Source of the DNA: a virus
Length of the DNA stretch: 64,000 nt
Direction: 5' to 3' (one strand)
IMG/VR virus record: IMGVR_UViG_3300028840_004184
Span: 64,001-128,000 of that record
Within the stretch, counting starts at the first letter, position 1, and each line of letters begins with the position of its first letter. Under the pieces are notes generated by a model. It saw only the letters and a list, made by a program, of their open reading frames with translations. It was not told the origin of the DNA and made no database searches. Of the stretch, positions 9,766 to 60,692 are shown one piece after another. A program made the position numbers and the translations under genes.

Positions 9766-10737
9766 TTAAGTAAAATAGTTTGTAAATTTATTAGACCAAT
9801 AACTGATTATATTATGTATAAATGTTATATTGCTGTGTTGTGATGGTATCACTTGAATCGGTGCTGTTTTTAATACCGACCTTTTAATAAGTGGTCCCAT
9901 CTCATCCCAAAAATGTGATAGTGCCCTTTTCACAACGGAGTTTTTCGTATATTTACTCATTTTGAATTTAGCTACCTTCCATAATTCTTTTTGTTGATAG
10001 GCAGATAATTCAAAGATCTTAGATGGGAAAAATTGTTCCGTTTCTGGTGGGATTATAATGCTTTGTCTTATAGCATGTTTTAGCAACCTTGTCCATACCT
10101 TTGGTTCTCGCGTTTTTTTTGTTGGTAATGAAGGTGTCAAGAACGCCTTTCTGTGTTGGGTAAATCTGTAAAATTCTGTCGTACTTATTTTAGTTTCGTT
10201 TTCATCTATTCCCACTTGGCAAAAATTCCAGTCGAAACCTTGTAGAATTTTTAATGGATCATTTATGTTATCCACATTCATAAATATAAGTTGTATTTTT
10301 TTGTCCCATTTTGTGTCTATGTATTGATACTCAAATATAGCAGCAATGTTATGTTTTGATGATTTGAAGTGCTTGAGTTTGAGAGCCTGTTTCTTGGTTT
10401 GCCCGATAGCTTTAAAGTTTCCTTTAGGGTTTACAAGTTTGTCTATTACATTATCCGTGATATTATTACTAAGGGGCACGAATACATCAACATCACCATA
10501 ATTATTTGTGTATCCTTCCGCAAACAATCCAGCACCACCGGCTATTAAGAATGGATGACCGTGCTGTATACGGGTATCAATAAAACCCATAACCCTGTTA
10601 AATACAGTGTTCCTGTCATAAGACGATATATTCTGTGTAGGTTCGATAATAACATGTCCTGATGGCGGATCACATACATCACACACCCAGTTTACAAGAA
10701 GCTGAGTCATTTTGTTATTACATTTGGGACATTTCAT
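9766..10737 (-). CDS. N-terminal Zn-ribbon + Pol-beta-fold nucleotidyltransferase (CCA-adding/poly(A) polymerase head-like)
   Basis: 'FLIAGGA...YGDVDVF' and 'IQLIF...FDWNFCQVG' motifs. Confidence 0.7.
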   Translation of the reverse strand: MKCPKCNNKMTQLLVNWVCDVCDPPSGHVIIEPTQNISSYDRNTVFNRVMGFIDTRIQHGHPFLIAGGAGLFAEGYTNNYGDVDVFVPLSNNITDNVIDKLVNPKGNFKAIGQTKKQALKLKHFKSSKHNIAAIFEYQYIDTKWDKKIQLIFMNVDNINDPLKILQGFDWNFCQVGIDENETKISTTEFYRFTQHRKAFLTPSLPTKKTREPKVWTRLLKHAIRQSIIIPPETEQFFPSKIFELSAYQQKELWKVAKFKMSKYTKNSVVKRALSHFWDEMGPLIKRSVLKTAPIQVIPSQHSNITFIHNIISYWSNKFTNYFT

Positions 10738-10943
10738 TCGCTTAATCGCCGCGAAGGCTTACTCCATTTATTAAGTCTTTCAAGACATTCTACACAGTCT
10801 GGTTTTCTATATTTATAACCCCATGGCATTATTACTACGTGTTCACATAATGTATGTACGTTATCTATTTCATTACTGGGTTTTTGGTTGTTTTTTGTGG
10901 CACAAAACCCGTTACTATGTTCGACGCACCATACTTTTTTCAT
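10734..10943 (-). CDS. Small Cys/His hypothetical protein
   Basis: 4-nt overlaps with both neighbours. Confidence 0.6.
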   Translation of the reverse strand: MKKVWCVEHSNGFCATKNNQKPSNEIDNVHTLCEHVVIMPWGYKYRKPDCVECLERLNKWSKPSRRLSE

Positions 10944-11317
10944 TGTAATTTCTTTTTCTTATATGGTATAACATAACCACTACTATGTATTGCGAGTAAG
11001 TCACCCGTCTTTATAGGACCAGAAGCAGACACTTGGAATGTTGCTCCTCTTGCTGTGCCGCCAGTCATCATCACGAGCACCGTGTGGTCTTCTGGGTCAG
11101 GAGCAGACACTGCAATACCAATAGGTATCTGTTTATCATCGGCATATTCCCACCCGTTCCATTGATCGTCTTGTGGGAAAACACACTCATCTTCGGTTGA
11201 TGGCTCTTTGTTGTTAGCAGTCTTTTTCTTTTTAGTATTGTCAGACGGATTACAGTTTTCGCAAACCCAGGATGTTAATAACTGTATCATGGGCTTTTTA
11301 CATTTGGGACAATTCAA
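10940..11317 (-). CDS. LLTS Zn-ribbon-tagged hypothetical protein
   Basis: MNCPKCKKPMIQLLTSWVCENC. Confidence 0.7.
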   Translation of the reverse strand: MNCPKCKKPMIQLLTSWVCENCNPSDNTKKKKTANNKEPSTEDECVFPQDDQWNGWEYADDKQIPIGIAVSAPDPEDHTVLVMMTGGTARGATFQVSASGPIKTGDLLAIHSSGYVIPYKKKKLQ

Positions 11318-11320
11318 CCT

Positions 11321-11722
11321 TTAGTCACCCTCTTTCTTTTTCTGTTTTTTGAGTTTTTCCAGCACCTCGGGCGAGGCATTAATTCTACGATAATCAAAGC
11401 CACCATCAAGAGACAGGTTTTGGCATTTGCATGTTTGGTAGTCGTGTCTATGTAACGAATGTATAGTTTTTTTACATTCCGGACATTTTATTTTCGGTGC
11501 TTTGTTTTCGTCAATAATATTTTTCTTCAACATGTTAGACGGTAAAGTTAGTGGTAGGGCCATGCCTCCATAGACTGAAAAATGTCTATAGCGTTTATGT
11601 AGCCATCCGAATGACTGTCTACATTCACAATAAACTTTACGTCGTTGAAGTTTTTTGATGTCCCGGCATCTGGGACAATATATAAAGACATATTTGTACC
11701 AATCTTTTTCGTTATATTCCAT
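11321..11722 (-). CDS. Zn-binding phage protein
   Basis: 'CPECKKTIHSLHRHDYQTCKC..SLDGG' pattern common in phages. Confidence 0.65.
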   Translation of the reverse strand: MEYNEKDWYKYVFIYCPRCRDIKKLQRRKVYCECRQSFGWLHKRYRHFSVYGGMALPLTLPSNMLKKNIIDENKAPKIKCPECKKTIHSLHRHDYQTCKCQNLSLDGGFDYRRINASPEVLEKLKKQKKKEGD

Positions 11723-12461
11723 TAGCTATATCCACGTATTGTTTACTTATATCAAAACCAAGCCATCTACGGTTTAGTTTTTTCGCTACCTTAAGAGTTG
11801 TTCCAATACCACAAAAAGGATCGACAACAAGGTCACCAGCATAACTAAGCATTTGTATAAGCCTATAAGGCAATTCTTCTGGGAAAACGGCAGGATGTAC
11901 CTCGTGTTTAACTCCTGGAAACTTCCATATGCCATTAGAAAACTTAACAAACTCTTCTTTTGAAACAGTTATTTTTTCTTTATCACCTTCCTTGCGATGT
12001 GTTTTGTGTGCAAACACCAGTATGTATTCAAACGGTCTAGGGAAAGACGGGTTAAGAGGAGATTGGAACGATCCCCACGCCGTTCTATTGCTTGTACTCC
12101 CTTTGTCCCACAAAATAATTGTTACAGGGAGAAATCCCAGATTGTCAGTCATTCTCTGTATAATGTCAGAATGAGTGGGGACCTTCCCGTTTTTGCCGTC
12201 TCCTATATTGATGCAAACCCTAGCACCGTCTTTTAAAAGAGGCATAAGGCGAACCATTTTCATCATTAACCACTCTATATAGTCTTTGTGATCTTTATTG
12301 TCGTTATATAGATCATAGGGACGCTTATTGTATTTGTTGTTTCCCAAGTTAATGTTGTATGGTGGAGAGCAAATAACCATATCTATTATCGGGTCTTTTA
12401 CGTACTTATTTATATTAATACAATCATCACATATGGCTTTATTAATTATGTTTTTATGCAT
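11712..12461 (-). CDS. DNA amino-methyltransferase, beta class (likely N4-cytosine)
   Basis: Catalytic SPPY before SAM-binding DPFCGIGTT; HPAVFPEEL. Confidence 0.92.
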   Translation of the reverse strand: MHKNIINKAICDDCININKYVKDPIIDMVICSPPYNINLGNNKYNKRPYDLYNDNKDHKDYIEWLMMKMVRLMPLLKDGARVCINIGDGKNGKVPTHSDIIQRMTDNLGFLPVTIILWDKGSTSNRTAWGSFQSPLNPSFPRPFEYILVFAHKTHRKEGDKEKITVSKEEFVKFSNGIWKFPGVKHEVHPAVFPEELPYRLIQMLSYAGDLVVDPFCGIGTTLKVAKKLNRRWLGFDISKQYVDIANGI

Positions 12462-12951
12462 TTTTATACACTTTATAGTTTTTGTTTTTGAGTATTTTTT
12501 TCATTATATTTGTGGATCTGGTTACCCATTGCCAATTACGTGGTATATTTTTCCCACCACGAGATTTAGGGATTATATGATCTACGGTAGCGTCGAAACC
12601 TAATTCAAGTTTTTCATTTGTATAAGCACATTGATAGTTTTGTTTTTCAAGAATATTTTGTAAATCTTTCCAGTGTTTATTGGTGCCTGTAATTTTGTAT
12701 GACTTAGTTTTAAGCCAACATATTTCACACTTTACGCCAACGATAGCTTGACAACCACAATAGGGACATAGCCCAGATTGTTTCCGCTGATGTTTTGTCT
12801 TGAGTTTAAGTTTCGCGGCTCTCTTTTTATTTAATTTATACCATGGATCACCACCATGTTTTCTGCGATATGCTCTCCTACAGGCATTTATTTTGTCTTT
12901 ATTTTGCTCTCTGTACACACGAAGGTATTCTTTTCGTTCTTGACGATTCAT
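12454..12951 (-). CDS. HNH endonuclease
   Basis: 'QNYQCAYT...TVDHIIPKSRGG..NWQWV...NIMK'. Confidence 0.85.
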   Translation of the reverse strand: MNRQERKEYLRVYREQNKDKINACRRAYRRKHGGDPWYKLNKKRAAKLKLKTKHQRKQSGLCPYCGCQAIVGVKCEICWLKTKSYKITGTNKHWKDLQNILEKQNYQCAYTNEKLELGFDATVDHIIPKSRGGKNIPRNWQWVTRSTNIMKKILKNKNYKVYKNA

Positions 12952-13361
12952 GGCAGAACAATTCCCCCACCAGTTTCTTCGTTAGGGAGAATGATACCTT
13001 TGCCATGTTTCTTTTCCATCATACGTAAGCATACTTTTAATATATGGGCGGGGGCTTTTTTGTCTTGTTCAGCGATGTGCCCTATTAATGACAATATAAC
13101 GGCTACGTGTTTATCAAGATAGCTTTGGAATAGAACTTGGCTTAGCTCAGTTTTGCTTTTTATTTCTTCTTTGAGTATAACACCTTCTTGTATAGTCCAT
13201 TCATCTATAACTTGTTCAATAGCAATAGCTAATGCACGAAGTGTGTTCACACGAGATATATTTTCGTGTTGATATAGGATATAAACTATTTGTTGAACTG
13301 CTGATTTTATTAAATCTAGATCTTGTTCTGTTGGCTCTTCTTTAAAGGCTTCCATGCTCAT
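12948..13361 (-). CDS. Hypothetical helical protein
   Basis: Operon overlap, SD. Confidence 0.65.
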   Translation of the reverse strand: MSMEAFKEEPTEQDLDLIKSAVQQIVYILYQHENISRVNTLRALAIAIEQVIDEWTIQEGVILKEEIKSKTELSQVLFQSYLDKHVAVILSLIGHIAEQDKKAPAHILKVCLRMMEKKHGKGIILPNEETGGGIVLP

Positions 13362-13951
13362 TTGGTGCTCCCGTATATTTCTTGAAACGCTTCTTCCCGA
13401 GTAATTTCGCCCTTCTTATGTCTGATCGCTTGTTCTTTTTTCATGCGAAATCTTTGTCCTGTGGCTTCTGTAAATTCTTTGATGTTTGAATACACAGTGT
13501 CGTTTTCTGAAGTATCAGATTCTTTTGCTTTTTCGCGACGGAACTGGATGCATTTTTGTCGTATGCGGCCCTGCTCTTTTCTGATATACACTATTTTTTC
13601 TTCACAGTCATTTCTTTTACTTAGGACTGGATGAAATTCTATGGCCATGCGTACTATCATACTTGATTTATGTTCTCTAAGTATTTGTATTATATCCATT
13701 TCTGCACCGCATGTTCGATGATCGATCATGAGCATTTTACGCATAAAATGTTTAAAAAGTTCTCCTTGAAAATGATTGGTTTGACCATTTTCTTGGGTTG
13801 TAAAAGGATAAGAGCCATGAAAGTTCTTAAGAAAGTCGTACAAAAGAAGATAAAGATCTTTGTCGCTTAATTTAAGCTTGTCTGTCATTAGAATGTTCCT
13901 TTTTTTATTTTTTCCTTGACTTATTCTATCCCATAAAGTATACTTTGTCAA
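13358..13951 (-). CDS. Hypothetical protein (true start may be downstream)
   Basis: 197-aa ORF, first of the minus-strand operon. Confidence 0.6.
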   Translation of the reverse strand: MTKYTLWDRISQGKNKKRNILMTDKLKLSDKDLYLLLYDFLKNFHGSYPFTTQENGQTNHFQGELFKHFMRKMLMIDHRTCGAEMDIIQILREHKSSMIVRMAIEFHPVLSKRNDCEEKIVYIRKEQGRIRQKCIQFRREKAKESDTSENDTVYSNIKEFTEATGQRFRMKKEQAIRHKKGEITREEAFQEIYGSTK

Positions 13952-13990
13952 GTTGTTTTTTCTTTTTTTTACTATATGGAGGCCTTATAA

Positions 13991-14254
13991 ATGCCTTATA
14001 TTCCAGCCGAGCGTCGAGAAGAAAGATTTGATGAACACCTCGAAAGAATTCTTGAAGGTATTGAGGTCCAGGGCGATCTTACCTACTGTATCTATTGGTT
14101 GATGGTCAAGTGGGCTCGTTCTAAGCCTGGACGACCCAGCTATCATAATTATAGCCCATCCGGAGCAGCCTGTCAAGATGCAAATAGTGAATTTTACAGA
14201 AAGGAGATGATCCCTTTAGAAGATAATGCTATTGAGAGAAATGGAGATATTTAA
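13991..14254 (+). CDS. Conserved phage hypothetical protein
   Basis: GGAGG SD; 'MPYI...GDLTYCI...EFYR...ED.AI..NGDI' pattern. Confidence 0.75.
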   Translation: MPYIPAERREERFDEHLERILEGIEVQGDLTYCIYWLMVKWARSKPGRPSYHNYSPSGAACQDANSEFYRKEMIPLEDNAIERNGDI

Positions 14255-14336
14255 TTTTGTATTGCATAAATGTGGTAATTCTGTGTGTTGCAATCCGAAA
14301 CATTTATTTTTAAGCAGGAAATCGACAAAAGATTAG
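14253..14336 (+). pseudogene. HNH endonuclease remnant
   Basis: Start-less frame reads FVLHKCGNSVCCNPKHLFL, the classic HxCxNxxCxNPxHL core. Confidence 0.6.
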
Positions 14337-14419
14337 TGTATATATAATTAAGGCAATTTGACAAAGAGCAAGTTACGAAAGCTATTGAACATATATAACA
14401 ACTATGAAGGAGGTGGGTC

Positions 14420-15202
14420 ATGTTCAAGAGTAGTATTGTAACGTGTGTTTTGTCCGTTTCTTATTGTCTTTTAACACTTCTCGGCTGTACCACATGCAAA
14501 AAGGATGTTTCCCCCTCTTTATTTCCGGAAGAACAAAGAATATCTAATATTTATGATCGTGTAGCCCGGTCTGTTGTTTTAATTAAAAACAAAAGAAAGC
14601 ATCCTACTATGGGTGTAGCTACGTACTGTATGGGTAGTGGATATGTTGTATCTTGTGGTATGGATAAAATTATTGTAACAAACTATCATGTTGTGGATTT
14701 AGCATATTCTGTTTGGGTAGTGATTAATGAACAAGAATGGGAAGCCGATTTCGTAGGCGGGGCTAAGTCTTGTGATATCGCAATTATTAGAATAAAAAAC
14801 CCAGCTATTTTGCAACACATGCCGTCTTTGACATTTGGCTCATCTGCTGACTTGAAGGTTGGCCAAGATGTTTATACTCTGGGTTACCCCTTTGCTTTGC
14901 CGTTAACTATGACAAGAGGTATAGTTAGTGGTTTGAATAGAAGGGTTTGTGTGGGTGACGATATCGATATGCATGGATGTATACAGATTGATAGTGCCGT
15001 CAATCCAGGCAGTTCTGGTGGTGCGGTTTTGAATAGTAGAGGAGAATTAATAGGTATGGCTACCATGATTATGTCTCGTGGAGGAGACTTTTGTGGGATA
15101 GCATTTGCCATTCCAAGTGATCTTATTCGTACTATTGTAGACTCTATTATGGAAGAATATAATAAAATGTTAATATTTTTTCATAATTCACTTGACTATT
15201 GA
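14420..15202 (+). CDS. Trypsin-like (HtrA/DegP family) serine protease, predicted lipoprotein, no PDZ
   Basis: TNYHVV, DIAII, IQIDSAVNPGSSGG triad motifs; LLGC lipobox. Confidence 0.9.
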   Translation: MFKSSIVTCVLSVSYCLLTLLGCTTCKKDVSPSLFPEEQRISNIYDRVARSVVLIKNKRKHPTMGVATYCMGSGYVVSCGMDKIIVTNYHVVDLAYSVWVVINEQEWEADFVGGAKSCDIAIIRIKNPAILQHMPSLTFGSSADLKVGQDVYTLGYPFALPLTMTRGIVSGLNRRVCVGDDIDMHGCIQIDSAVNPGSSGGAVLNSRGELIGMATMIMSRGGDFCGIAFAIPSDLIRTIVDSIMEEYNKMLIFFHNSLDY

Positions 15203-15620: not shown

Positions 15621-15621
15621 T

Positions 15622-16902
15622 ATGAGAAATCTTGCTTCTATCCAGAAGATCAAAAGCCTTCAACCCATTGAAGGGGCTGATAAAATTGAAGTGGCTCGCG
15701 TTCTTGGTTGGGATGTTGTGGTAAAAAAGAATGAGTTTCAGCCTGGAGATCTCTGTGTCTATATTGAAATTGATTCTGTTCTACCATCGCGGGATGAGTT
15801 TAATTTTTTACTTAAGCTAACGGCTAAATGCTCTAATGACAATTGCCCAAATCGTTGGCAGGTTCCATATGATTTTAAGCTTATTGGTGGTCGTGTATAC
15901 TGCCCTAAGTGTGATAAGCTAAGCGAAGAGATCGAGGAGATTCCTGAAGTCAAGCAAGAAAAAATGAGACGTATTCGAACTATTAGGCTTCGCGGTCAGT
16001 TATCTCAGGGAATTGTTTTCCCATTGTCGATCTTGCCTAATAATGCCATGTGTTTTAAGAAAGATATGGTAGATACCGATGTTACTGAAGCCCTCGGTAT
16101 TAAGAAATATGAGCCCCCTATTGCTAGCGGCCCTGGTGGCCCCAATCGTAACAAGAGAACTAAGGGGAAGCGACCTATTTATGTACCACTGACTGACGAG
16201 ACCCGTGTACAGATCCTGGGTCCTGTTATCGAGAAATATCAAGGAACCGTGGGTTATATTAGTGAGAAACTGGACGGCTCTAGTTTCTCTGCTTCGCTCG
16301 TAGGAGGTAAGTACGAGGTATGTAGCCGGAATATGAATTTGGCAAAGCCCGGACTTCCTTGGTTACGCAGGTTATTGAATTGGTACTGGCAGTTGCGAAA
16401 CCGACAAGAAATGGTCCGTCATCCCGAAAGGGTAGACGCCTGGTGGTCTGTGGCCAATACTCTTGGTTTAAAAGAACGCATGCAAAAGTACTGTAAAAAT
16501 CATGGAATAAGAAATATTGTTTTACAGGCAGAATTAATAGGACCTAGAGTACAAGGAAACAAATACGCACTAGATGATTACGACCTTTACGTTTTTCAAA
16601 TTTATAATCCCGACACTGATAGTTATTTTAGTTTTATTGATTTTATTAATGCTGTTGAAGAAATGGGACTTAAAACTGTGCCAATTTTGAATGATAATTA
16701 TATTCTCGGTGGTGACAGTGATACTTTACTTCAGGTGGCGAAGGGCGATAGTGTATTAAACCCTAAAATTCCAAGGGAAGGCATAGTCTTCCGTCCATTA
16801 AAAGAAGTCTTGGTTACTTCTGGTATCGGTAGTAAGTTGCATCGAAGTAGATTAAGTTTTAAGGCAATCAATAATGATTTTCTACTAAGATATGGTGAAT
16901 AA
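15622..16902 (+). CDS. ATP-dependent RNA ligase, DRB0094 family
   Basis: MRNLASIQKI..PIEGADKIE..VLGW.VVVKK..GDLCVYIEIDS; motif I EKLDGSS; QAELIGP, FQI, REGIVF, FKAINNDFLL. Confidence 0.92.
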   Translation: MRNLASIQKIKSLQPIEGADKIEVARVLGWDVVVKKNEFQPGDLCVYIEIDSVLPSRDEFNFLLKLTAKCSNDNCPNRWQVPYDFKLIGGRVYCPKCDKLSEEIEEIPEVKQEKMRRIRTIRLRGQLSQGIVFPLSILPNNAMCFKKDMVDTDVTEALGIKKYEPPIASGPGGPNRNKRTKGKRPIYVPLTDETRVQILGPVIEKYQGTVGYISEKLDGSSFSASLVGGKYEVCSRNMNLAKPGLPWLRRLLNWYWQLRNRQEMVRHPERVDAWWSVANTLGLKERMQKYCKNHGIRNIVLQAELIGPRVQGNKYALDDYDLYVFQIYNPDTDSYFSFIDFINAVEEMGLKTVPILNDNYILGGDSDTLLQVAKGDSVLNPKIPREGIVFRPLKEVLVTSGIGSKLHRSRLSFKAINNDFLLRYGE

Positions 16903-17479
16903 TATGGGGAAAATAATCCATGGGCACAGTTTACAAAATAATAAAACCTCTACTTATCAAATATGGAAATCTATGATAAAACGTTGTTCTAATTCTAATG
17001 ATAGGTATTATGCAAATTATGGTGGCCGTGGCATCAAAGTATGTCATCGATGGAAAAAGTTTGAAAATTTTCTAAAGGACATGGGTGAAAAACCCAATGG
17101 CATGACGCTCGATAGAATTGATAATAACGGGCATTACTGTATGGAAAATTGTCGATGGGCTACTAGAAAACAACAAATGAGAAATACTCGTAGAAATAGA
17201 TTAATTACTATAAATAATAAAACCAAGTGTTTGTCCGAATGGTGCGAAGAGTTATGTCTAAATTATCACAGAACCAAAAAAAGACTTAATCGTGGGTGGC
17301 CTGTAGAAGAGGCTTTTGATATAGTGCCACATAAAGTCTTGTGCCATAAATATTTTACGTGGCATAATCAAACACTAAATATGAGACAGTGGTGTAAAGT
17401 ATTAAACCTCAAATATACTACCGTGATGATGCGTATAAAAAGTGGGTGGTCTATCCCAAGAGCCTTAGGTTTACTATAA
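16892..17479 (+). CDS. HNH homing endonuclease with C-terminal DNA-binding repeats
   Basis: YGGRGIKVC.RW..F..F..DMG, TLDRIDNNG.Y..ENCRWAT...Q..N. Confidence 0.88.
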   Translation: MVNNMGKIIHGHSLQNNKTSTYQIWKSMIKRCSNSNDRYYANYGGRGIKVCHRWKKFENFLKDMGEKPNGMTLDRIDNNGHYCMENCRWATRKQQMRNTRRNRLITINNKTKCLSEWCEELCLNYHRTKKRLNRGWPVEEAFDIVPHKVLCHKYFTWHNQTLNMRQWCKVLNLKYTTVMMRIKSGWSIPRALGLL

Positions 17480-20275: not shown

Positions 20276-21055
20276 ATGATAAGAAAGTGTGATAAATGCG
20301 GATCTAACCTTGTTGAGTTGATTACATCGTGGGTTTGCCCTAACAGTTGCAACAAGGTGGACACCCCCTTGAAATCCCCCGGTGACTGGGGATCCGAAAT
20401 AGAACGTGACACCTTCTACCAGGACTTGCTTAAGGAGCAATGCAAAAACTGCGTCAACGAAGGAGATCATGATAATTGTTGTGGCAACGCTTGTGATGAA
20501 ATACCGTGTCCTGGATTTGAGAAAATGCCTGTAAAGAAGTCTATTACAGAACAGTCAATGATGCAACCAGTAGATATAACACAAAGCGGTTGTTTGAGTG
20601 GGCTAAAGAAGCCGCAGACAAAAATGTCATTAAAACAAGATCTCCATAAGCGGCAAGAAGATAAGTCCGCGTCGCTCTGTTCGATGGGTGTTTGGCGATG
20701 TGGATGTGGTAAGTTTCCTATACTCAAAAGCGAACCGGATGAAGAGGGAGATTTATTTTGGTTTTCATGTTGTGATATAGTTTCTTTTAATACGTCAGAT
20801 CTTAAATTGGCAGTTTTGCGATGGAATAATCTCCTTAAGCAGAAGGAGGGGTGGGAAAGACTAGGTGAAGTAGATCACATCGAAATAAACGATGGAAATA
20901 AAATTGTTATACATACTAAAAAGAACAATTTTCATATGAATGAGGATCAAATAATAAGTGATATGTCGGAAAAAGATTGTCCAAATAGTATAAAAAACAT
21001 ATTTCTTTATTATCAACAAAAGCATAATATATATAGATTTGAAATTATACCATGA
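20276..21055 (+). CDS. Multi-Zn-ribbon protein (LITS tag + internal Lar-like segment)
   Basis: CDKCGSNLVELITSWVC; CGCG...FSCC...AVLRWN. Confidence 0.65.
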   Translation: MIRKCDKCGSNLVELITSWVCPNSCNKVDTPLKSPGDWGSEIERDTFYQDLLKEQCKNCVNEGDHDNCCGNACDEIPCPGFEKMPVKKSITEQSMMQPVDITQSGCLSGLKKPQTKMSLKQDLHKRQEDKSASLCSMGVWRCGCGKFPILKSEPDEEGDLFWFSCCDIVSFNTSDLKLAVLRWNNLLKQKEGWERLGEVDHIEINDGNKIVIHTKKNNFHMNEDQIISDMSEKDCPNSIKNIFLYYQQKHNIYRFEIIP

Positions 21056-24534: not shown

Positions 24535-25155
24535 ATGGGAATGTCACGATCAGAAGCTGGTAAGCTTGGTGCTAAGAAAGTTAATCCGGCACAAAGACAA
24601 AGAGCGATAAACAAATACTACAAAAGTCCATCTATTTGTAAATATTGTGGTAAAGTTATACGAATCAAAAATAAGGAAAAAGCATCTTATGTTAAAAGAA
24701 AGAAATTTTGTAATAGATCATGTTTAATGAGATACATAAACGCGTTACATGTTCGGCAAAGCGATAAACGAAATTGTTTACAATGCGACAAGGTAATACC
24801 AGCGAGACAGAAATACTGCTCTTTGAAATGTCAGCAATTATATAAAAAAATAAAAAGATTCAACGATATAGACGAAAGACAAGATGCTGATGGGTATGGT
24901 AATAAAACTATTAAGTCATATTTGTTATATAAATATGGTTATAAATGCTCTATATGTAATAATACTGTGTGGATGGACAAACAAATCCCCTTAGTTATGG
25001 ACCACGTAGATGGTAATCCATACAATAATAAGATCAATAACTTAAGGCTGGTCTGTGGTAACTGTGATATGCAGTTACCAACGTATAAGTCAAAAAATAG
25101 AGGAAGTGGTCGTCATTATAGACGACTAAGATATAAACAAGACAAAAGCTATTAG
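24535..25155 (+). CDS. HNH homing endonuclease in the tRNA array
   Basis: FCNRSC/YCSLKC repeats; MDHVDGNPYNNKINNLRLVCGNC. Confidence 0.88.
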   Translation: MGMSRSEAGKLGAKKVNPAQRQRAINKYYKSPSICKYCGKVIRIKNKEKASYVKRKKFCNRSCLMRYINALHVRQSDKRNCLQCDKVIPARQKYCSLKCQQLYKKIKRFNDIDERQDADGYGNKTIKSYLLYKYGYKCSICNNTVWMDKQIPLVMDHVDGNPYNNKINNLRLVCGNCDMQLPTYKSKNRGSGRHYRRLRYKQDKSY

Positions 25156-27396: not shown

Positions 27397-28011
27397 ATGA
27401 GAATTCCTGATATTTTGATAAAAGATCTTAATAGCCTAAGTCCAGGCAATCGTGTTTTGAGATTAAGGGGATTGTCGTCATATTATCGAAACCCAAGATA
27501 TTGTTTGTTTTGTAACAAAGTTATTAATGCTGTACCTGGAGTACGTCTTGCACGCACAAAGGCAAAAAAGTTTTGTAACCAAAGATGTGCTGCATTATAC
27601 AATAATAAGCGTAAGCTGTCTAATGAGTGTTTGTATTGTGGTAAATCAATATATAAGTATCGTAAATACTGTTCTCATAAGTGTGTTCAAGAGCATAAAT
27701 ATAGAACATATATCGGTAAATGGCTTAGCGGTAAAGTAAGTGGTATAAAAGGCAAGGACAGCATATCTAATTATATCAGACGTTGGTTAATTGATAAATA
27801 TAACAATCGATGCGTTAAGTGTGGATGGAGTGTAAAAAATAGATATACGAATAAAGTCCCTCTACAAATTAATCACATCGATGGTAATTGGAAAAACAAC
27901 AAGTCCGAGAATTTAGAGCTTGTATGTCCTAATTGTCATTCATTAACACCTAATTATGGTGGTAGAAATAAAGGAAAAGGACGACCATATAGGTATAAAA
28001 TGCGAGTATAA
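27397..28011 (+). CDS. HNH homing endonuclease in the tRNA array
   Basis: FCNQRC/YCSHKC; LQINHIDGNWKNNKSENLELVCPNCHS. Confidence 0.9.
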   Translation: MRIPDILIKDLNSLSPGNRVLRLRGLSSYYRNPRYCLFCNKVINAVPGVRLARTKAKKFCNQRCAALYNNKRKLSNECLYCGKSIYKYRKYCSHKCVQEHKYRTYIGKWLSGKVSGIKGKDSISNYIRRWLIDKYNNRCVKCGWSVKNRYTNKVPLQINHIDGNWKNNKSENLELVCPNCHSLTPNYGGRNKGKGRPYRYKMRV

Positions 28012-30730: not shown

Positions 30731-31210
30731 ATGAATAATATGTGTCCTAAATGTGGTGGTGTTATGGAGCTAGGTTTTAACCAATACACTTGTTATCAGT
30801 GCGGAAAAGAACCGGTATATAACGAATATAATTTCGATGTAGGTTATAACCGTGATTTTAAAATTGGCGATAGGTGGTGTAATATTTTTAAGTCTGGTGG
30901 TACAAAGTATTTTAGAATAGCCACTAGCATTACAGTAGATGCTTCTACTTGCAACTGGTTTCCTTTGTGTCCAGATGAATTGAAGATATTTCTTTATACT
31001 ATTAAGTCTCCTTATAAAAATCATTTGCTTTCAGGCACGCAACACGCATTGTCAGGAAAGCATTTTGATATCACAATATATAACAGAGACCAATTAGTTA
31101 TAAAGGGTTCTACAACATCTGAGCAGATGGAAATCATTTTTAGTAAAAAAGATGCGGAAAAACTTGTATCTCTTGTGAAACAAGTGAAAAAATTATTTGA
31201 CTCTTGTTGA
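30731..31210 (+). CDS. Zn-ribbon-tagged hypothetical protein
   Basis: MCPKCGGVMELGFNQYTCYQC. Confidence 0.7.
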   Translation: MNNMCPKCGGVMELGFNQYTCYQCGKEPVYNEYNFDVGYNRDFKIGDRWCNIFKSGGTKYFRIATSITVDASTCNWFPLCPDELKIFLYTIKSPYKNHLLSGTQHALSGKHFDITIYNRDQLVIKGSTTSEQMEIIFSKKDAEKLVSLVKQVKKLFDSC

Positions 31211-36077: not shown

Positions 36078-36323
36078 GTGAAACTACAAATGTACCACGA
36101 AGTTAAAATATCTCTCCAGTGGTTTTTGGATCAAGAGATCACCGGTCAGGCTGCGACGGTTAAAGATATGTTGGTGGATGAAGCGATGAAGAGAATGTCC
36201 AATGAGAATGTCCCTATTTCTGAGTATGACTTGGGCAAGCCTGTTATAATATGTAGGGATGGGTATCTTGTGATCCATTTTTATCCGCATAGGGGAGAGG
36301 ACAATGAAGTGCCCCAGGTATGA
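36078..36323 (+). CDS. Hypothetical protein
   Basis: ORF in cluster. Confidence 0.55.
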   Translation: MKLQMYHEVKISLQWFLDQEITGQAATVKDMLVDEAMKRMSNENVPISEYDLGKPVIICRDGYLVIHFYPHRGEDNEVPQV

Positions 36324-36759
36324 TAGAGAGATGACTATGTTGCTTACGTCTTCGTCTTGCGACGTGTGTGATGCCAAGAGTGATCCGGATGGGAAGGAAA
36401 AACCATCTTCGTGTAATAGCAATATAGGGTATAAGGTCACTGATGCTGCTCTTTTTAAAACTGGGTCTGATGGAAAGGGATCTGTAAAAAGTCTTGTTCC
36501 AGGATTTCAATTCAGGACAAACTGTGTCAAACAACCATCTATTCACGACCCTTACCGTATCGAAGATTATGCTGTGGCTGCTTCTGGTAGATTTGCTGAC
36601 GTGGAAATAAAAATTCTAAGCTTTGGTTTTGATGGTTACGGGAAGAGAATAGATTCTTATTATGCTATTTATCTTCCTGTGGATTGTGACTGGAAGAAAT
36701 TTGGTGAAATGTTATCCCGTGTTCGACAGAGACGAAAGGACAAAACTAATGGCCCTTAA
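36304..36759 (+). CDS. LLTS Zn-ribbon-tagged protein
   Basis: MKCPRYDREMTMLLTSSSCDVC. Confidence 0.7.
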   Translation: MKCPRYDREMTMLLTSSSCDVCDAKSDPDGKEKPSSCNSNIGYKVTDAALFKTGSDGKGSVKSLVPGFQFRTNCVKQPSIHDPYRIEDYAVAASGRFADVEIKILSFGFDGYGKRIDSYYAIYLPVDCDWKKFGEMLSRVRQRRKDKTNGP

Positions 36760-40149: not shown

Positions 40150-40629
40150 ATGATATGTTCTAAGTGCGGATCGAAAATGAAGCTTTTATTAACTTCATCT
40201 TATTGTGATTGTGAAGATACGGCTATCGCCAAAAATAATATCAACGATAAAAAGGCGGGACGATTCAATGAAATGATTGGAGGGGTTAATTTCTTTTATG
40301 AGGATGGATCACCACCCGTTGAATATATAGGTCGTCCATTTTCAATGACATGTCGGCAACCAGACGATCATGGTCAATATACTTACAAGTGGTTTTTTAG
40401 TATAAATAGTATACGTACTATTGTGAATTTTTTATCCAGTGTTTATTATGACCATAATGATAAAGACAAAATAATAGCTGACCATATTTGTTTTGAGTGT
40501 GATAAAAAAAGAACCGGAAGCTTCGTACATATTTATCATAAGGATTATAGTGATGAGCGGTGGATGTTTACAGAAAGAGAAATTGGGCTTATCGTAGGTT
40601 TTTGGCATAAGTTTTTATCCAGTAGTTGA
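40150..40629 (+). CDS. LLTS Zn-ribbon-tagged protein
   Basis: MICSKCGSKMKLLLTSSYCDC. Confidence 0.7.
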   Translation: MICSKCGSKMKLLLTSSYCDCEDTAIAKNNINDKKAGRFNEMIGGVNFFYEDGSPPVEYIGRPFSMTCRQPDDHGQYTYKWFFSINSIRTIVNFLSSVYYDHNDKDKIIADHICFECDKKRTGSFVHIYHKDYSDERWMFTEREIGLIVGFWHKFLSSS

Positions 40630-55194: not shown

Positions 55195-55460
55195 TGTCTT
55201 GACGTATTCCAATGCGTCAAGATGTTACCATATGGTAACGGTCATTTTGACATGTCAACCTGCCAGCTTGGCAGGGTACCCGGTTTTTTAATTTCCTGCC
55301 ATTTTGACACTGCCATTTTGGCAGCCGGGGGGGCCATCTATCAACGCCCCGCCTCGGCGTGAGCCGAGTTGCTCACCCAAGTTGTCAAAAATCGATGACC
55401 CCCCGGTTCAAAAAAGTTGCTCACCTAAGGGGGACACCCCCTTAAAACCCCCGGCTTCTT
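55195..55460. repeat. Palindrome/direct-repeat-rich non-coding block at the strand convergence
   Basis: TGCCA-N3-TG(A/G)CA palindromes, GTTACCATATGGTAAC, AGTTGCTCACCYAAG x2, G/C runs. Confidence 0.65.
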
Positions 55461-55470
55461 AACTACACAT

Positions 55471-55710
55471 TCATGTATTTTGTGCAGACTCACAATAGCA
55501 TGGTCTGTGTGCTATATCTGCAATATCACCACACCTCATATGTAATGCTTTAATTTCTTCGTATATCGAATCCAGTATAGCAAGTATATCACCAGCAGGG
55601 ACGTTCTCACTTTTATGGTTGTTTAACCATACTGCCCAGCAGTGTACACAGTTTGTTTTTCGTAACGGCTTCCTGACACCTTTATATTTGGTGTGTTTAG
55701 GGCATTCCAT
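55471..55710 (-). CDS. Small Cys/His protein
   Basis: CPKH.KYKG..KP...C..CW. Confidence 0.65.
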   Translation of the reverse strand: MECPKHTKYKGVRKPLRKTNCVHCWAVWLNNHKSENVPAGDILAILDSIYEEIKALHMRCGDIADIAHRPCYCESAQNT

Positions 55711-55726
55711 TATTATTTCCTTTCAG

Positions 55727-56044
55727 TTAACCTATCCCAAATGATATAATTTGTTTCAAAACCCCCGGCTTGGGTGTGGTTTTGTAACAATGGGAAGCTT
55801 TATCCCACTTATACCACGTTTCATATTCTGGAAGCGGGGGGAGGGCGTATGTCCCTTCGGGGACTTTTTCAACAACAGCGAAGCTATAATATCCACCATC
55901 ATTGATATCAAGATCATTTCGTATAACCATTTTTTCGGCTATACTCTTTTCAGAATACCAGCCAACCAACCTGCTGCGTTTGATGGGATAACTACCATCA
56001 CTCAATTCGATCATGGTGATCGTGTAGATATATTTAGTGGTCAT
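55727..56044 (-). CDS. Conserved phage hypothetical protein
   Basis: 'R.VGWY....A...V..N..DI....Y..AVVE...EG.Y......WYKW'. Confidence 0.7.
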   Translation of the reverse strand: MTTKYIYTITMIELSDGSYPIKRSRLVGWYSEKSIAEKMVIRNDLDINDGGYYSFAVVEKVPEGTYALPPLPEYETWYKWDKASHCYKTTPKPGVLKQIISFGIG

Positions 56045-56115
56045 ATTTAAGACTTTCTCTTCTCTGATGGCATCGCTGTGCGTTCGTGACCCAATTGCCC
56101 ACTTCCTTTCTTTTG

Positions 56116-56313
56116 TTAAGGAGTAATATCGGTATCACCGGTATATTCCTTATACGCATCATCAATTTGTTGCTTAGTAATACCCTTATCACATGATTCA
56201 CATCTGATAAAAACAAGCTGTTGTTTTTCAAAAGCCTGGATATTAATTATCGGTATAGGTTGATTACAATGTGGACAATATAAAGTTGATAAATTAGAAT
56301 CGTCACGGACCAT
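56116..56313 (-). CDS. Small Zn-ribbon protein
   Basis: CPHC...CESC. Confidence 0.55.
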   Translation of the reverse strand: MVRDDSNLSTLYCPHCNQPIPIINIQAFEKQQLVFIRCESCDKGITKQQIDDAYKEYTGDTDITP

Positions 56314-56447
56314 TATAAATGAAGCCTTTCTGTTTCACCGCTCATAAAACCATCTCTTCTAAAAGCACCCTTCTACTGGTTGCATAAAAAAGAAACTATT
56401 AAACCAATCTACAACATCCAAGGCCCTTATAAGCCTATCTTCGAAAA

Positions 56448-56651
56448 TCATACTTGTCTTTTAAGCCACCCAATACATCTACGACACTCGACCCAACTAT
56501 ACACAATATCATAAGCACACCATTGGTATACTGCCCTTTTAGACATATGAGTACCACAAGCGGGTTTACCATCTTGTACGATGTGAACCTTCCCGCCATT
56601 CCTGCCCGGAATACCAAAGTATCCTGTTTCGTAATTACCTTTGTCTTTCAA
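56448..56651 (-). CDS. Small Zn-binding protein
   Basis: KVH...CGT...CRRC. Confidence 0.6.
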   Translation of the reverse strand: MKDKGNYETGYFGIPGRNGGKVHIVQDGKPACGTHMSKRAVYQWCAYDIVYSWVECRRCIGWLKRQV

Positions 56652-56898
56652 AATATATATCCAAAGTATAAGTCAATACACCATATGGAATCTTAGTTCC
56701 ATTTACCTTATGAAAACCGTCTACCTTAGACGTGTCTCTCCATCTACTATTTATAAAGTGATTCAAATATTTATCGTTATCACCCAACGTGTCTTTTATA
56801 GCCCTCCATGCCAATTGGTCCCAATCTAGTTGGGTGAGAACCCCATAATTTTCAGGATGCTTCCGGTATTTTTTCAGTACTATGGTTATTTTTTTCAT
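56635..56898 (-). CDS. Hypothetical protein
   Basis: Overlapping operon. Confidence 0.6.
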   Translation of the reverse strand: MKKITIVLKKYRKHPENYGVLTQLDWDQLAWRAIKDTLGDNDKYLNHFINSRWRDTSKVDGFHKVNGTKIPYGVLTYTLDIYFERQR

Positions 56899-57368
56899 CT
56901 AAGTTGTCCATTGATCATTTTTTCCCAAAACTCATGAATAACTTTTAGTTCACTCTTTGTGAATCTTATTTCAGCGGTAGAACTCGTTTTTGTAAACACG
57001 GCTCCCCATTGAGGGGCTGCTTTGCTATTTATTATACACAACCCATCTTGACTATAGTTACTATCCCAGACTGGTACCTGAATAGCATTGTTATGATCAA
57101 AAAAGAGCCATCTTTGTTTTACTATCTTTTCAATATCACTTCTACGAAAGAACCATTCTATTGTACTATTTAACACACTAACCCTGAAAAACGTATTTTC
57201 CGAACGATACGAAAAGAGAACACCATTTACATCGATGACGGTATTAGATGCGGAAGATATTTTATCATTAGAAGAACATTTTTCACAGACACAACTTGTC
57301 AGCAAGGGAATCATTTTATTTCCGCAAACTGGACATATCTTTTCACATTTAGTTCGCCTTGTTACCAC
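56895..57368 (-). CDS. LLTS Zn-ribbon-tagged protein
   Basis: ICPVCGNKMIPLLTSCVCEKC; GTG start after AAGGAG. Confidence 0.7.
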   Translation of the reverse strand: MVTRRTKCEKICPVCGNKMIPLLTSCVCEKCSSNDKISSASNTVIDVNGVLFSYRSENTFFRVSVLNSTIEWFFRRSDIEKIVKQRWLFFDHNNAIQVPVWDSNYSQDGLCIINSKAAPQWGAVFTKTSSTAEIRFTKSELKVIHEFWEKMINGQLR

Positions 57369-57441
57369 GGAACACTCCTTAACAAAAAAATATAGCGGCA
57401 AAACAGATCACGCGGGGGTTCCAAAGGGGGTATCCCCCTTT

Positions 57442-57645
57442 TTAGTCGTTTGGATCTACCTCACTGACGCCCTCGCCCTTTACCTGATCTTTAATCCTCT
57501 CTACGAGAATATACCACCAGTCTTTTTGGCTTCTATCAGACAAGCTGTTTATAAATTTAAAACCCGCCTCCTCTATAGAATCATTTTCATAAGGACACAA
57601 AAAGCCTGCTTTGTGGCGAAGCCTATCTTTTTTCTTCTTTTTCAA
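57442..57645 (-). CDS. Hypothetical protein
   Basis: 4-nt overlap with the DHH gene. Confidence 0.55.
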   Translation of the reverse strand: MKKKKKDRLRHKAGFLCPYENDSIEEAGFKFINSLSDRSQKDWWYILVERIKDQVKGEGVSEVDPND

Positions 57646-58517
57646 TTGGTTGTTCCATTTCCATCGAATAAAGTAAAAGGAGTTTCCTTACACTGAAAGC
57701 CAGATGCCCCCTTATGTCCGCCACCGCCGTGCTTTTTGGCGATATCCCCAACATTTACATCACCCTTCGTAGAATACATGGTCACAACCCAGTGTTTGCC
57801 ATTCTTGTTATAATAAACCATCATTGCATCATGTTTGTCGGGATCATACACAGAGTCGAACAACTTGGACCCAGGCATACAGGCGTTCGCCGCTATGAAA
57901 CGAAGGCCCTCAAATTCGAACTCATAACACAGTGGACCACACAAGAATTCGTTTTGTTTATTAACATACTTTTGAATTGTACGACCTTCACTGACAATAT
58001 CCATAACAAGCGTATAAGAAGGCAGCATTTTGTTACCATCAAACAATATATGCCACAAACGATCGTCATCTTCCGGATTCGTGTCTCGTTGCTTGATGCC
58101 ATACTGAAACGGCAGTACGTCCATGTCTTTATGATCCCAAACGTCATACCTACCCAACAGAAAGACAGAGCGAGGCATTACTTGGTTAGGGAACAGATAT
58201 TGCCACGTAAGTTCACATGCCGCGAATTTCGTATCACGTATACCGGCTATAGCAATTTCGAATGCATTGACGCCGTTTATAGCTGTTTCGTGATGATCAA
58301 TCCAAACCAAGTCACAATGATTAAACAATGTGATCATATCTTCGTGTGGCTGCAAGGAAAAATCGACCATAAAGACAATTTCGCCTTCTGTAATAGAATC
58401 CCACGGAAATTCTTCTCCGTAATCCATGCCGATCATTTCGCATTCTGGATATTTATGTTTGACAATTGCACCAGCACAGTGGCCGTCAAGGTCTGTTGAA
58501 TGATAAAAACATTTCAT
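57642..58517 (-). CDS. DHH/DHHA1 phosphoesterase (nanoRNase NrnB-like)
   Basis: YH..DLDG, VDFS, WIDHH, YDVW, GGGGH.GASGF. Confidence 0.92.
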   Translation of the reverse strand: MKCFYHSTDLDGHCAGAIVKHKYPECEMIGMDYGEEFPWDSITEGEIVFMVDFSLQPHEDMITLFNHCDLVWIDHHETAINGVNAFEIAIAGIRDTKFAACELTWQYLFPNQVMPRSVFLLGRYDVWDHKDMDVLPFQYGIKQRDTNPEDDDRLWHILFDGNKMLPSYTLVMDIVSEGRTIQKYVNKQNEFLCGPLCYEFEFEGLRFIAANACMPGSKLFDSVYDPDKHDAMMVYYNKNGKHWVVTMYSTKGDVNVGDIAKKHGGGGHKGASGFQCKETPFTLFDGNGTTN

Positions 58518-58536
58518 TGCTCAGTCGCCGCAAGGC

Positions 58537-58974
58537 TTAGTTGCAGCCTCCATTTTCTAACACAATTTTTCTTATAAAATTACCTATACGTTTAACGCCA
58601 TTGTTTTTAATAACTATAGAGTCTTTAAAAAGACGAACCCCTACGTCTGGCATCACTATCTTGCTAGCAATCGTTAATTTGCCAAACAGTATGGTAAAAT
58701 ATATCTCTCCAACACGCAATTTAGATGATGAAACTTCACTTAATAAAAAATCAGCTATTCTTGTTGCTTCTTTTTTAGAAAAATATACCCCTCTGGTATT
58801 TAGCATATCACATGACAATACCAATACATAATCTTCATGATCAGAATGTGACCATCGAGCATCATCAGTTATAATAGTTTTATCTGATGAGGTTGCTTTT
58901 TTATCGCATTCTTTGGAACAGTAAAACGAAGTTAGTAACAAAAGCATGTCTGCTCCGCATACAGGGCATTTCAT
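58537..58974 (-). CDS. LLTS Zn-ribbon-tagged protein
   Basis: MKCPVCGADMLLLLTSFYCSKEC. Confidence 0.7.
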   Translation of the reverse strand: MKCPVCGADMLLLLTSFYCSKECDKKATSSDKTIITDDARWSHSDHEDYVLVLSCDMLNTRGVYFSKKEATRIADFLLSEVSSSKLRVGEIYFTILFGKLTIASKIVMPDVGVRLFKDSIVIKNNGVKRIGNFIRKIVLENGGCN

Positions 58975-59706
58975 TTATTTTTTCCTCAGGGAGATAAGGA
59001 AATCATAGATTTCCTTTATGTCTTGCATCGCGAATGTATAAAAACTGTTTCTTTTTTTGCGACCGAAAGCATCTGGGGCTGTATATTTTACCTCAAGACT
59101 GGCTTCGGATTTATGGTGTTTCGAGACTGGACGATAATTAAAAGAGACATTTTTATATCCACATTGGCTTAGAAGAGTCCATTTATATAACTTTTCGTTA
59201 GAAAGAATATATTCCAGGTTTTCGGCTAGTACATGTGTATGGTTTTCACCGAATTCTAAAATATCCCTTAAGTCATGTCTAGAAATAGAAAGTTGACCAT
59301 CTCCGTATCTGAAACACACTTCGTTGTGTAGTATCAGTCGTTTATAGTTATGTGTACGACATTCTTGTTGTATAACATTTTTGTTGTCCGTTGGTGATGG
59401 CTCGACCAGGACTTCACTACGGCAGCTCATTTGATGATGACAAGCCGTGCAATTTAATAGACAATAGTCAAGACTACTCCAATTATTTTGTGAGCATAAC
59501 GAATTGTTTCTGTATAGAATGTCTTCGATGGCTGCTTTACGAGTTTCGATGGACTGATTCCATAAATGTCTTGCTAATGGTTCATCAACGGCTTTTGGCC
59601 CCTTGATACCACACTCACTACAGGTATAATTATTATGAAAACCCATTTCACGATTTAAAACGGCCAACCCACCACATAAACATTTGTCAAGGAAAGTCGC
59701 ATCCAT
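58975..59706 (-). CDS. Protein with N-terminal Lar-like Zn ribbon
   Basis: CLCGG.A......Y.C..CG..GP......A..LWN. Confidence 0.6.
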   Translation of the reverse strand: MDATFLDKCLCGGLAVLNREMGFHNNYTCSECGIKGPKAVDEPLARHLWNQSIETRKAAIEDILYRNNSLCSQNNWSSLDYCLLNCTACHHQMSCRSEVLVEPSPTDNKNVIQQECRTHNYKRLILHNEVCFRYGDGQLSISRHDLRDILEFGENHTHVLAENLEYILSNEKLYKWTLLSQCGYKNVSFNYRPVSKHHKSEASLEVKYTAPDAFGRKKRNSFYTFAMQDIKEIYDFLISLRKK

Positions 59707-60017
59707 TAGAATCCATCTCCTATTTTAAAACCACGGATATAATTATCGTCGTCGCCACATGGGTTATAGTCAGGATTGGGCTCTACTGGTCCATGTATAT
59801 GTTTTTTAATATGTATAGGGAAACATGGGATGATACAAATCCATATGTCTGTTGATATATGTCGTCTATGTTTTGGTGTCGCTCCTGGATGTGTTTGTCC
59901 AGTATAGTTATATGTTTTTTTCCAGTATACACCAATCCACATATCCCGTAGATTAAATTCCCATTTTACGCTTGTATTTTTCATGATTTTCCTTAAGTGC
60001 TTTATATGCTGGGTCAT
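59706..60017 (-). CDS. Hypothetical protein
   Basis: 'DMWIGVYW...WICIIPCFPI' phage pattern. Confidence 0.65.
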   Translation of the reverse strand: MTQHIKHLRKIMKNTSVKWEFNLRDMWIGVYWKKTYNYTGQTHPGATPKHRRHISTDIWICIIPCFPIHIKKHIHGPVEPNPDYNPCGDDDNYIRGFKIGDGF

Positions 60018-60228
60018 TAGTGTCAGCTTTGCCTAATGCCGACAGGATGTTAAGTTTTAGTACTTCTGGTATTCCTCGCCAATAACATATGTTGCCGCAA
60101 CCATCCTGACACTTAATATATTCTTCGCCATCCTCACCCTTGGAGAAGAACAAGGCATAATGCTTGCAAAAGGGACACTTTACTTTATCACCATGATCTG
60201 GTTTTAACATTATAGAAACCTTTTCCAT
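59953..60228 (-). CDS. Small Zn-ribbon protein
   Basis: CPFC...C..GCG. Confidence 0.55.
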   Translation of the reverse strand: MEKVSIMLKPDHGDKVKCPFCKHYALFFSKGEDGEEYIKCQDGCGNICYWRGIPEVLKLNILSALGKADTNDPAYKALKENHEKYKRKMGI

Positions 60229-60692
60229 ATATCGTGTTCGTTGTCAAGCTTGCTTTTAGTTCGCCGACCACGGATATTGTTGATAAGTTTGAATTCATTT
60301 GTTATACGATTTATCATAAGGCTATGTTTGCCTTTCATAAAAGCTTCTGATAGACCAGGCGGATCGGGCGGACACGACATCCAATTATTTATTCTTTCTT
60401 TTGTAGAATAACATATGGTCCATTCCGAGGTATCACTATTATTTATCATACCAAGCGGGAGGCCGTCTATATTAACAGATTTGGCATGTATAATAGAATA
60501 ACATTCGCCTATGTATTCCCAGTCTGAATCTTTTAATTCTATGCCATATGGCCTTTGTTGATACTGTGTTTTGAATATATTTCTATCCACATCGGGGGTT
60601 TTTGAGGGGGTCCCCTTAATGCATCCCTTGGGGCAATATGTCGAAGTCAGCAGCATTTCTAGCTCAGAACCACATACACTACACTTTTCCAT
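60210..60692 (-). CDS. LLTS Zn-ribbon-tagged protein
   Basis: MEKCSVCGSELEMLLTSTYCPKGC. Confidence 0.7.
   Translation of the reverse strand: MEKCSVCGSELEMLLTSTYCPKGCIKGTPSKTPDVDRNIFKTQYQQRPYGIELKDSDWEYIGECYSIIHAKSVNIDGLPLGMINNSDTSEWTICYSTKERINNWMSCPPDPPGLSEAFMKGKHSLMINRITNEFKLINNIRGRRTKSKLDNEHDIWKRFL

Follow-up and report, generated by a model that had tools for sequence, protein, structure and literature searches.

A predicted N-terminal zinc ribbon with a conserved LLTS turn on diverse small proteins of an uncultivated phage

The capsid-targeting sequence of the T4 internal proteins is an unstructured peptide, which is removed by the prohead protease. In the poxvirus ankyrin/PRANC, F-box and SOCS-box adaptors the partner is known (Skp1/cullin), and the constant domain is helical and located at the C-terminus. 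Zinc ribbons have been expanded to about 35 copies in Bacillus phage G, where the authors proposed that they are transcription factors or structural DNA-binding proteins (Iyer et al. 2021, PMC7824862). Here we describe a short tag that recurs in a stretch of 64,000 nucleotides of viral DNA (hereafter the window), which covers bases 64001-128000 of the IMG/VR virus record IMGVR_UViG_3300028840_004184; the record is 170,410 bp long, possesses direct terminal repeats and is rated complete. The tag is predicted to be an N-terminal zinc ribbon of about 25 residues with four cysteines (C4), its consensus is MKCPKCGSEMKQLLTSWYCPNDCDK, and it may serve as a docking handle for the different protein bodies that follow it.

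According to the original prediction, nine proteins of the window share this tag. A strict form of the motif (CxxC-x3/4-[ML]-x2-L-[LIVF]-[TN]-[SW]-x2-C-x1-4-C) was found six times in the six-frame translation of the window and a looser form seven times, while neither occurred in 30 mononucleotide shuffles. When a hidden Markov model (HMM) of the tag was run on the whole 170,410-bp genome, 11 open reading frames (ORFs) scored 37-58 bits and the next ORF reached 8.8 bits; eight of the 11 lie in the window, where the original prediction had placed them, and three lie just past its end on the minus strand. All nine proteins translate as described and eight of them carry the tag, but the ninth (30731..31210), already marked as divergent in the original prediction, has lost the LLTS and is not matched by the HMM. 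Ribbons of the general form CxxC-x8-14-C-x1-4-C are also enriched about tenfold in the window (23 against 2.3 expected from shuffles), and among these only the tagged ones received an HMM score. Because the other generic C4 ribbons of the genome score below 10 bits, the tag is a distinct family rather than part of a continuum, and the HMM does not merely recognize zinc ribbons in general.

Nine of the 11 tagged ORFs have no in-frame start codon ahead of the tag. The tag copies use differing synonymous codons and their upstream DNA is not conserved, therefore the conservation is at the protein level, with selection acting on the peptide; the same observations exclude a recent DNA duplication or a shared promoter cassette. 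A lipoprotein signal was excluded as well, since no Cys directly follows a lipobox, and so was a sliding-clamp-binding motif, in which the Gln would have to be conserved and is not. The second knuckle occurs as CxC, CxxC or CxxxC, and all three subtypes are present in this genome; the pattern of the CPNDCD subtype gave no match in IMG/VR.

When 1.84 billion representatives were searched with a profile of the tag, 306 clusters were recovered at E ≤ 1e-3, and the figures for length, position, conservation and body grouping given here were obtained from the best 150 of them. These proteins are 44-323 amino acids long, and the tag begins at residue 1 in 101 of the 150 and by residue 8 in 146, which agrees with an N-terminal placement. 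The first and third cysteines (C3 and C19) are present in all 150 proteins, C23 in 148 and C6 in 145, with His at the latter position in four others; such Cys-to-His swaps are typical of metal ligands. Among the other positions, Met10 is kept in 134 proteins (Leu in 15 more), Leu13 in 146, Leu or Phe14 in 136, Thr15 in 109, Ser16 in 138 and Asp24 in 104, so that Leu13 (97%), Ser16 (92%) and Met10 (89%) are conserved roughly as strongly as the cysteines. The conserved positions are hydrophobic or acidic (Asp22, Asp24), and there is no conserved Arg or Lys apart from a moderately kept Lys2, which points to a contact with protein rather than with nucleic acid. A separate search for long tagged proteins (567-2000 amino acids) returned none, an absence that carries little weight.

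Members of the family come nearly all from metagenomes, and where their surroundings are visible they lie among small genes of no assigned function in phage replication or accessory regions. One member is located on a 209-kb contig together with DnaB, ribonucleotide reductase, ThyA and the Pol III alpha subunit, and another is accompanied by PolA and an RNA ligase on a contig of 26 kb.

The tag was modelled with AlphaFold from residues 1-45 of the 58537..58974 protein and an alignment of 137 sequences, giving a predicted local distance difference test score (pLDDT) of 92 over residues 1-20. In this model a beta-hairpin lies between the two ligand pairs, with strands at residues 9-12 and 17-19 and a four-residue turn (13-16) made of the LLTS itself, while the roughly 20 residues after the hairpin have a pLDDT of 54-58 and were read as a disordered polar linker. 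The model and the alignment of 150 clusters are thus in line with the original prediction of a separate N-terminal module of about 25 residues, which bears a conserved LLTS at the hairpin tip and is followed by a polar linker. A single-sequence AlphaFold run on the same protein was unusable (pLDDT of 33). Structure searches with the 45-residue model gave no hit at Z ≥ 2 in VIA-align and a best E-value of 3.2 in Foldseek, and the structural neighbours of the tag in the ESM Atlas (YacG, HNH, NinG) covered only 30 residues and are leads at most.

The bodies behind the tag are mostly unrelated to each other. Two tagged ORFs lie close together on the minus strand: 9766..10737 (323 amino acids; tag at 10666-10737, 46.5 bits), whose body is of the Pol-beta nucleotidyltransferase type and Gad2-like, and 10940..11317 (125 amino acids with a TTG start; tag at 11246-11317, 48.5 bits), whose body has no Pfam or PHROG family. 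On the plus strand, the protein of 20276..21055 (259 amino acids; tag at 20282-20356, 50.5 bits) continues with a Cys-rich insert and then a Lar/RalR-like domain. Another plus-strand ORF, 36304..36759 (151 amino acids; tag at 36304-36375, 47.3 bits), carries Tyr where the second Cys would be and keeps the LLTS. The plus-strand ORF 40150..40629 (159 amino acids; tag at 40150-40215 with a CxC second knuckle, 37.4 bits) has its body family in common with the minus-strand ORF 56895..57368 (157 amino acids with a GTG start behind AAGGAG; tag at 57273-57341, 11 residues from the start, 41.6 bits). The bodies of two further minus-strand ORFs, 58537..58974 (145 amino acids; tag at 58900-58974, 50.6 bits) and 60210..60692 (160 amino acids; tag at 60615-60689, 46.0 bits), remained without a match. 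Past the window end, all on the minus strand, tagged ORFs were found at genome positions 131005-131916 (L001:3005-3916) and 131906-132634 (L001:3906-4634), both with a Lar/RalR-like domain, and at 133672-133941 (L001:5672-5941).

The degenerate relative 30731..31210 (plus strand, 159 amino acids) keeps the Cys spacing and the Met in its ribbon (30740-30811) and has GFNQ in place of LLTS. In a profile comparison its ribbon and the first part of its body group with the family of 40150 and 56895 (hhalign probability 89%, E 2e-6, 82 columns), therefore it is taken as a decayed member of that family. The 36304 protein is its converse, having lost the second Cys and retained the LLTS. The 40150 and 56895 bodies match each other at E 8e-6, and a profile search with this family returned only two further members.

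That the tag is carried on different bodies, one of them a nucleotidyltransferase, was also part of the original prediction and is borne out by the wider family. The 147 bodies taken from the best 150 clusters fall into 127 BLAST groups, and there are only four Pfam hits in the 150 proteins. The body of 9766..10737 matches phrog_1614 (E 2.3e-4) and contains the GG-x14-DxD nucleotidyltransferase signature in its translation; in the ESM Atlas, 22 of its 30 nearest clusters carry Gad2 (score 0.97), and by structure its template modelling (TM) score is 0.51-0.71 to clusters of Gad2 and of PolyA_pol/CCA-adding enzymes. A word-based search with this body returned the protein itself alone, and tblastn against cultured phages returned nothing. 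Gad2 is a phage anti-Gabija protein of 400 amino acids that was predicted to be a nucleotidyltransferase (Yirmiya et al., 10.1101/2023.05.01.538930). Both proteins are thus nucleotidyltransferase-like, while the Gad2 paper describes no zinc-ribbon tag (10.1101/2023.05.01.538930).

What appears to be the pattern known from Lar/RalR proteins, two Cys pairs followed by EA-x3-W(N/G), occurs inside three of the tagged proteins, namely those of 20276..21055, 131005-131916 and 131906-132634. In pairwise comparison with E. coli RalR, the 131005-131916 protein gave E 3e-4 and the orthologue on another contig (L038) gave E 2e-5, both being E-values of single comparisons only. The three bodies appear to have the Cys-pair and EA-x3-W pattern in common with Lar/RalR, but the scores with the curated HMMs are too low here, both for PF14354 (14.9 bits against a cut-off of 28.6, E 0.033) and for TIGR03655 (12.8 bits against 39.6, E 0.11). 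These likenesses to Gad2 and Lar, drawn from sequence and predicted structure, are leads towards a counter-defence function and not proof of it. The remaining bodies gave no match.

Besides the family of 40150, 56895 and 30731, the only related bodies in this genome are those of 20276..21055 and 131906-132634, whose C-terminal domains are homologous at E 3e-14. The tag and linker of 20276..21055, over 37 amino acids, are 65% identical to those of 131005-131916. This is the pattern of a recombinant, yet the Lar-like domain is present in all three, which may instead be old paralogues with gene conversion at their 5' ends. The abrupt change behind the tag is also seen in two pairs of metagenomic proteins: P0117 and P0119 have an identical prefix of 42 residues and then wholly different sequence, and P0015 and P0063 have a near-identical tag and linker followed by unrelated bodies, which suggests a frameshift or recombination right after the tag.

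Two tagged genes on a 2.1-kb contig of a relative (L038) match the downstream pair of this genome in their order. Their tags are identical to the orthologous ones at 19 of 23 and 15 of 23 positions, the middle parts of the proteins cannot be aligned, and the Lar-like domain is about 33% identical, indicating that the tag is under much stronger constraint than the sequence downstream of it. Seven other virus records, including a complete phage genome of 424 kb, hold one tag copy each, so this genome with its 11 copies is an outlier. The tags within it are no more alike (50.4% identity) than tags of different genomes (50.1%), the observed value being reached by 1481 of 2000 random sets, and eight of the nine tags compared have their nearest relative in another genome. 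Together with the presence of all three knuckle subtypes, this indicates that the 11 copies are old or separately acquired lineages rather than the product of a recent burst. It also follows from the equal identities that anything that reads the tag must recognize its universal core.

The tag is not covered by the family libraries that were searched. Pfam, PHROGs and NCBIfam contain no family that matches it above threshold, and the curated zinc-ribbon families of Pfam (Zn_ribbon_6, Zn_ribbon_TFIIB and Zn_ribbon_RlmA) reached at best 9.8-15.8 bits against cut-offs of 22-27. DUF7567 reached 21.8-23.7 bits against a cut-off of 27, and did so with one protein only. Matches to PDB sequence profiles were confined to the generic KCPxCG knuckle, and no description of the domain was found in the literature. 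The fold is of a known kind, while neither the family nor its arrangement, in which more than 120 unrelated bodies follow a constant N-terminal ribbon, is described in the libraries and papers searched.

Outside phages, 185,579 prokaryotic species genomes were scanned with a pattern of the tag, and eight of the matches were true ones, mostly in metagenome-assembled genomes (MAGs) labelled Myxococcota, Polyangiales, Haliangiales or Sandaracinus. In these eight loci of myxobacterial type (L017-L019, L021, L022, L025, L027 and L028) the tag is an LFTS variant present as a single copy per genome; all eight proteins have the same conserved body of about 110 amino acids, and the adjoining genes are not conserved. 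Among 151 sampled genomes from the phylum of one tag-bearing Myxococcota-like MAG (G006), this MAG itself was the only match. At one of the eight loci, a Ser/Thr kinase and a STAND-like NTPase that bears a phosphatase domain are among the neighbours.

We favour the reading that the tag is a protein-protein docking handle which brings variable bodies to one conserved partner, and we give it a probability of about 0.4. We prefer it because a hydrophobic turn is conserved to an extreme degree, the tag is strictly N-terminal, the linker behind it is flexible, the bodies are unrelated and conserved basic residues are lacking. In this reading, a minimal C4 ribbon forms the extreme N-terminus of small accessory proteins in tailed phages, where the two Cys pairs (sometimes with His as the second ligand) are predicted to hold the beta-hairpin with its LLTS turn, followed by a disordered polar linker and then by a body that differs in each protein. 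The Leu-Leu-Thr-Ser tip would form an exposed contact surface, since so small a domain could hardly bury Met10, Leu13, Leu or Phe14 and the aromatic residues 17-18, and through it the tag would dock the variable bodies onto one conserved partner. This partner is more likely a component of the host than of the phage, because unrelated phages carry the tag without another common gene nearby. At least some of the bodies would be counter-defence or nucleic-acid enzymes, and this phage has gathered 11 old, diverged copies, against one in the other phages examined. By analogy with F-box adaptors, one could go further and regard the LLTS ribbon as the constant plug of a phage adaptor system, whose Leu-Leu tip inserts into one conserved host machine (a protease, a polymerase or a chaperone) while the bodies, which evolve fast, are directed each at its own host target, defence proteins included, so that the counter-defence range would be widened by collecting tagged genes (11 or 12 here); we consider this extended scheme improbable as a whole.

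Several points weigh against a docking handle. The conservation figures for LLTS are partly circular, as the hits were chosen with an HMM that contains it, and a fold of 25 residues may need nearly every residue for folding, hence the conservation of Met10, Leu13 and Ser16 alone is no proof of an interface. The exposure of the tip is deduced from the small size of the domain, and the 30731 protein tells us that a ribbon can persist without the LLTS tip. No recurrent gene family was found beside the tagged genes of this genome, in which the tag itself accounts for most of the intragenomic similarity; the tag-bearing loci of other phages have only general replication genes in common with this genome, and the eight myxobacterial loci have no recurring neighbour family. 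The resemblance to Lar stays below curated thresholds and that to Gad2 comes from the ESM Atlas rather than from a family HMM. Finally, a chromosomal single-copy version with one conserved body in some Myxococcota fits poorly with the delivery of phage effectors.

Some of these points would be expected if the ribbon were a stand-alone structural cap without a common partner, that is, a tiny, zinc-stabilized and fast-folding start for rapidly evolving or newborn C-terminal sequences, which sits at the N-terminus because the bodies are replaced downstream by recombination, indels or frameshifts. The spread of 147 bodies over 127 groups with almost no Pfam family, the abrupt junctions after the tag and linker in the two metagenomic pairs, the missing partner and the ribbon kept without LLTS in 30731 all agree with such a cap, and in so small a fold all the conserved residues could be structural. 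However, Leu13 in the turn is more conserved (97%) than Met10 in the strand (89%), although a turn residue has little to pack against, and 36304 has lost a zinc ligand but kept its LLTS. Moreover, zinc ribbons are plentiful in this genome, and a generic stabilizer would not need one sequence to be kept across unrelated phages and some Myxococcota. We regard the cap as the main rival, a possible but doubtful explanation. Self-association is clearly less probable and, in our view, unlikely: here the tags would pair through their hydrophobic tips, giving homodimers in phages with a single copy and, among the 11 proteins of this genome, mixed dimers that form a network. The simplest conserved partner for a universal surface is another copy of the same surface, the hydrophobic residues appear to be exposed on the small hairpin, and no other co-occurring partner was found; but most of the phages examined hold one copy, and mixed pairing therefore cannot be the general function.

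The domain might also anchor enzymes or regulators on phage or host nucleic acid, as a DNA- or RNA-binding ribbon like those of primases, TFIIB or TFS, or like the phage G ribbons, for which a role as transcription factors was proposed. Many zinc ribbons bind nucleic acid, the neighbours of the tagged genes include a methylase, HNH proteins, a uracil-DNA glycosylase (UDG) and an RNA ligase, and one body is a nucleotidyltransferase. TFS is also the best NCBIfam similarity of the tag, a weak one that covers the first knuckle only (E 0.009-0.04, 15-16 bits against cut-offs of 65-120). With no conserved Arg or Lys beyond the moderate Lys2, with hydrophobic or acidic residues (Asp22, Asp24) at the conserved positions, and with a likeness to known ribbons that is confined to the generic KCPxCG knuckle, we find this anchor very unlikely. 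We think even less of a virion-packaging signal, by which the tag would load counter-defence proteins into the head for co-injection with the DNA, in the manner of the T4 capsid-targeting sequence. The strict N-terminal site with its flexible linker would suit packaging, and some bodies resemble anti-restriction or anti-defence proteins, which gain from co-injection, but the linkers show no common cleavage motif, the tagged genes belong to a region of small genes and nucleic-acid metabolism away from the structural genes, and the tag is present in unrelated phages with different head genes as well as on myxobacterial chromosomes.

The region that carries the tagged genes contains numerous small genes amid nucleic-acid enzymes, including a RuvB-like ATPase, an RNA ligase, a DUF932 protein, a DHH phosphoesterase, a DNA methylase, HNH endonucleases, a UDG and a pyrimidine-dimer glycosylase. 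Neither the window nor the tag nor three tagged proteins had a relative in megablast and tblastn searches of 50,697 records of cultured phages. Two phages that have a 720-amino-acid protein in common with this genome contain no tag copy, and the RuvB-like protein used as a bait for related phages yielded none. Adjoining the tagged gene 10940..11317, the ORF at 11321-11722 matches DUF7695 (E 6e-12) and a zinc-ribbon domain, and a DNA N6/N4 methylase (11712-12461) lies directly downstream of it. Three paralogues with no assigned function, 55-61% identical, are encoded at 16892-17479 of the window and at genome positions 130058-130570 and 138681-139280, one of them directly after the RNA ligase gene. 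Two HNH endonucleases (24535-25155 and 27397-28011) are 35% identical to each other, each with a treble-clef-like zinc site; they are located in a region of tRNAs and small genes and may be homing endonucleases. At the beginning of the window, proteins of 491 amino acids (5-1480) and 724 amino acids (3016-5190) contain several copies of a common internal repeat (35-56% identical), which are probably tail-fibre repeats, and the ORF between them encodes a beta-helix domain.

Most small early or accessory genes of phages have no assigned function, and a domain of 25 residues that marks about 300 clusters of such proteins offers a means to find and classify them. If there is one docking partner for the tag, a whole class of phage proteins without assigned function would be placed in one pathway, and the Gad2-like and Lar-like bodies suggest that this pathway could be counter-defence. 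Should it be no more than a folding cap, it would clearly illustrate how phages assemble new small proteins downstream of a fixed N-terminus. Pfam, PHROGs and NCBIfam all lack the family, which merits a model under either reading.

Compared with the systems named at the outset, the genome described here resembles that of phage G in holding many small C4 ribbon copies in one large phage genome. The ribbons of phage G are located near residues 100-121 of tandem paralogues of about 200 amino acids and have no LLTS, whereas the tag here is N-terminal on mostly unrelated bodies; with 12-16 bits in the tag profile, against 35-58 for the tag, together with their internal position and the lack of LLTS, identity of the two was excluded. 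Like the capsid-targeting sequence of T4, the tag is a short N-terminal element common to otherwise different phage proteins, some of them anti-restriction proteins in the case of T4, but it is predicted to be a folded zinc domain, shows no cleavage site that is visibly conserved and is found in phages unrelated to each other. The bodies here are not repeat proteins, unlike those of the poxvirus ankyrin/PRANC adaptors, while the principle of those and of the F-box and SOCS-box adaptors, a small constant domain that docks variable bodies onto one machine, is the logic put forward in the original prediction. The N-terminal ribbons of TFIIB/TFB and TFS, through which these archaeal and eukaryotic factors dock on RNA polymerase, likewise combine an N-terminal C4 ribbon with a beta-hairpin as the protein-docking element.

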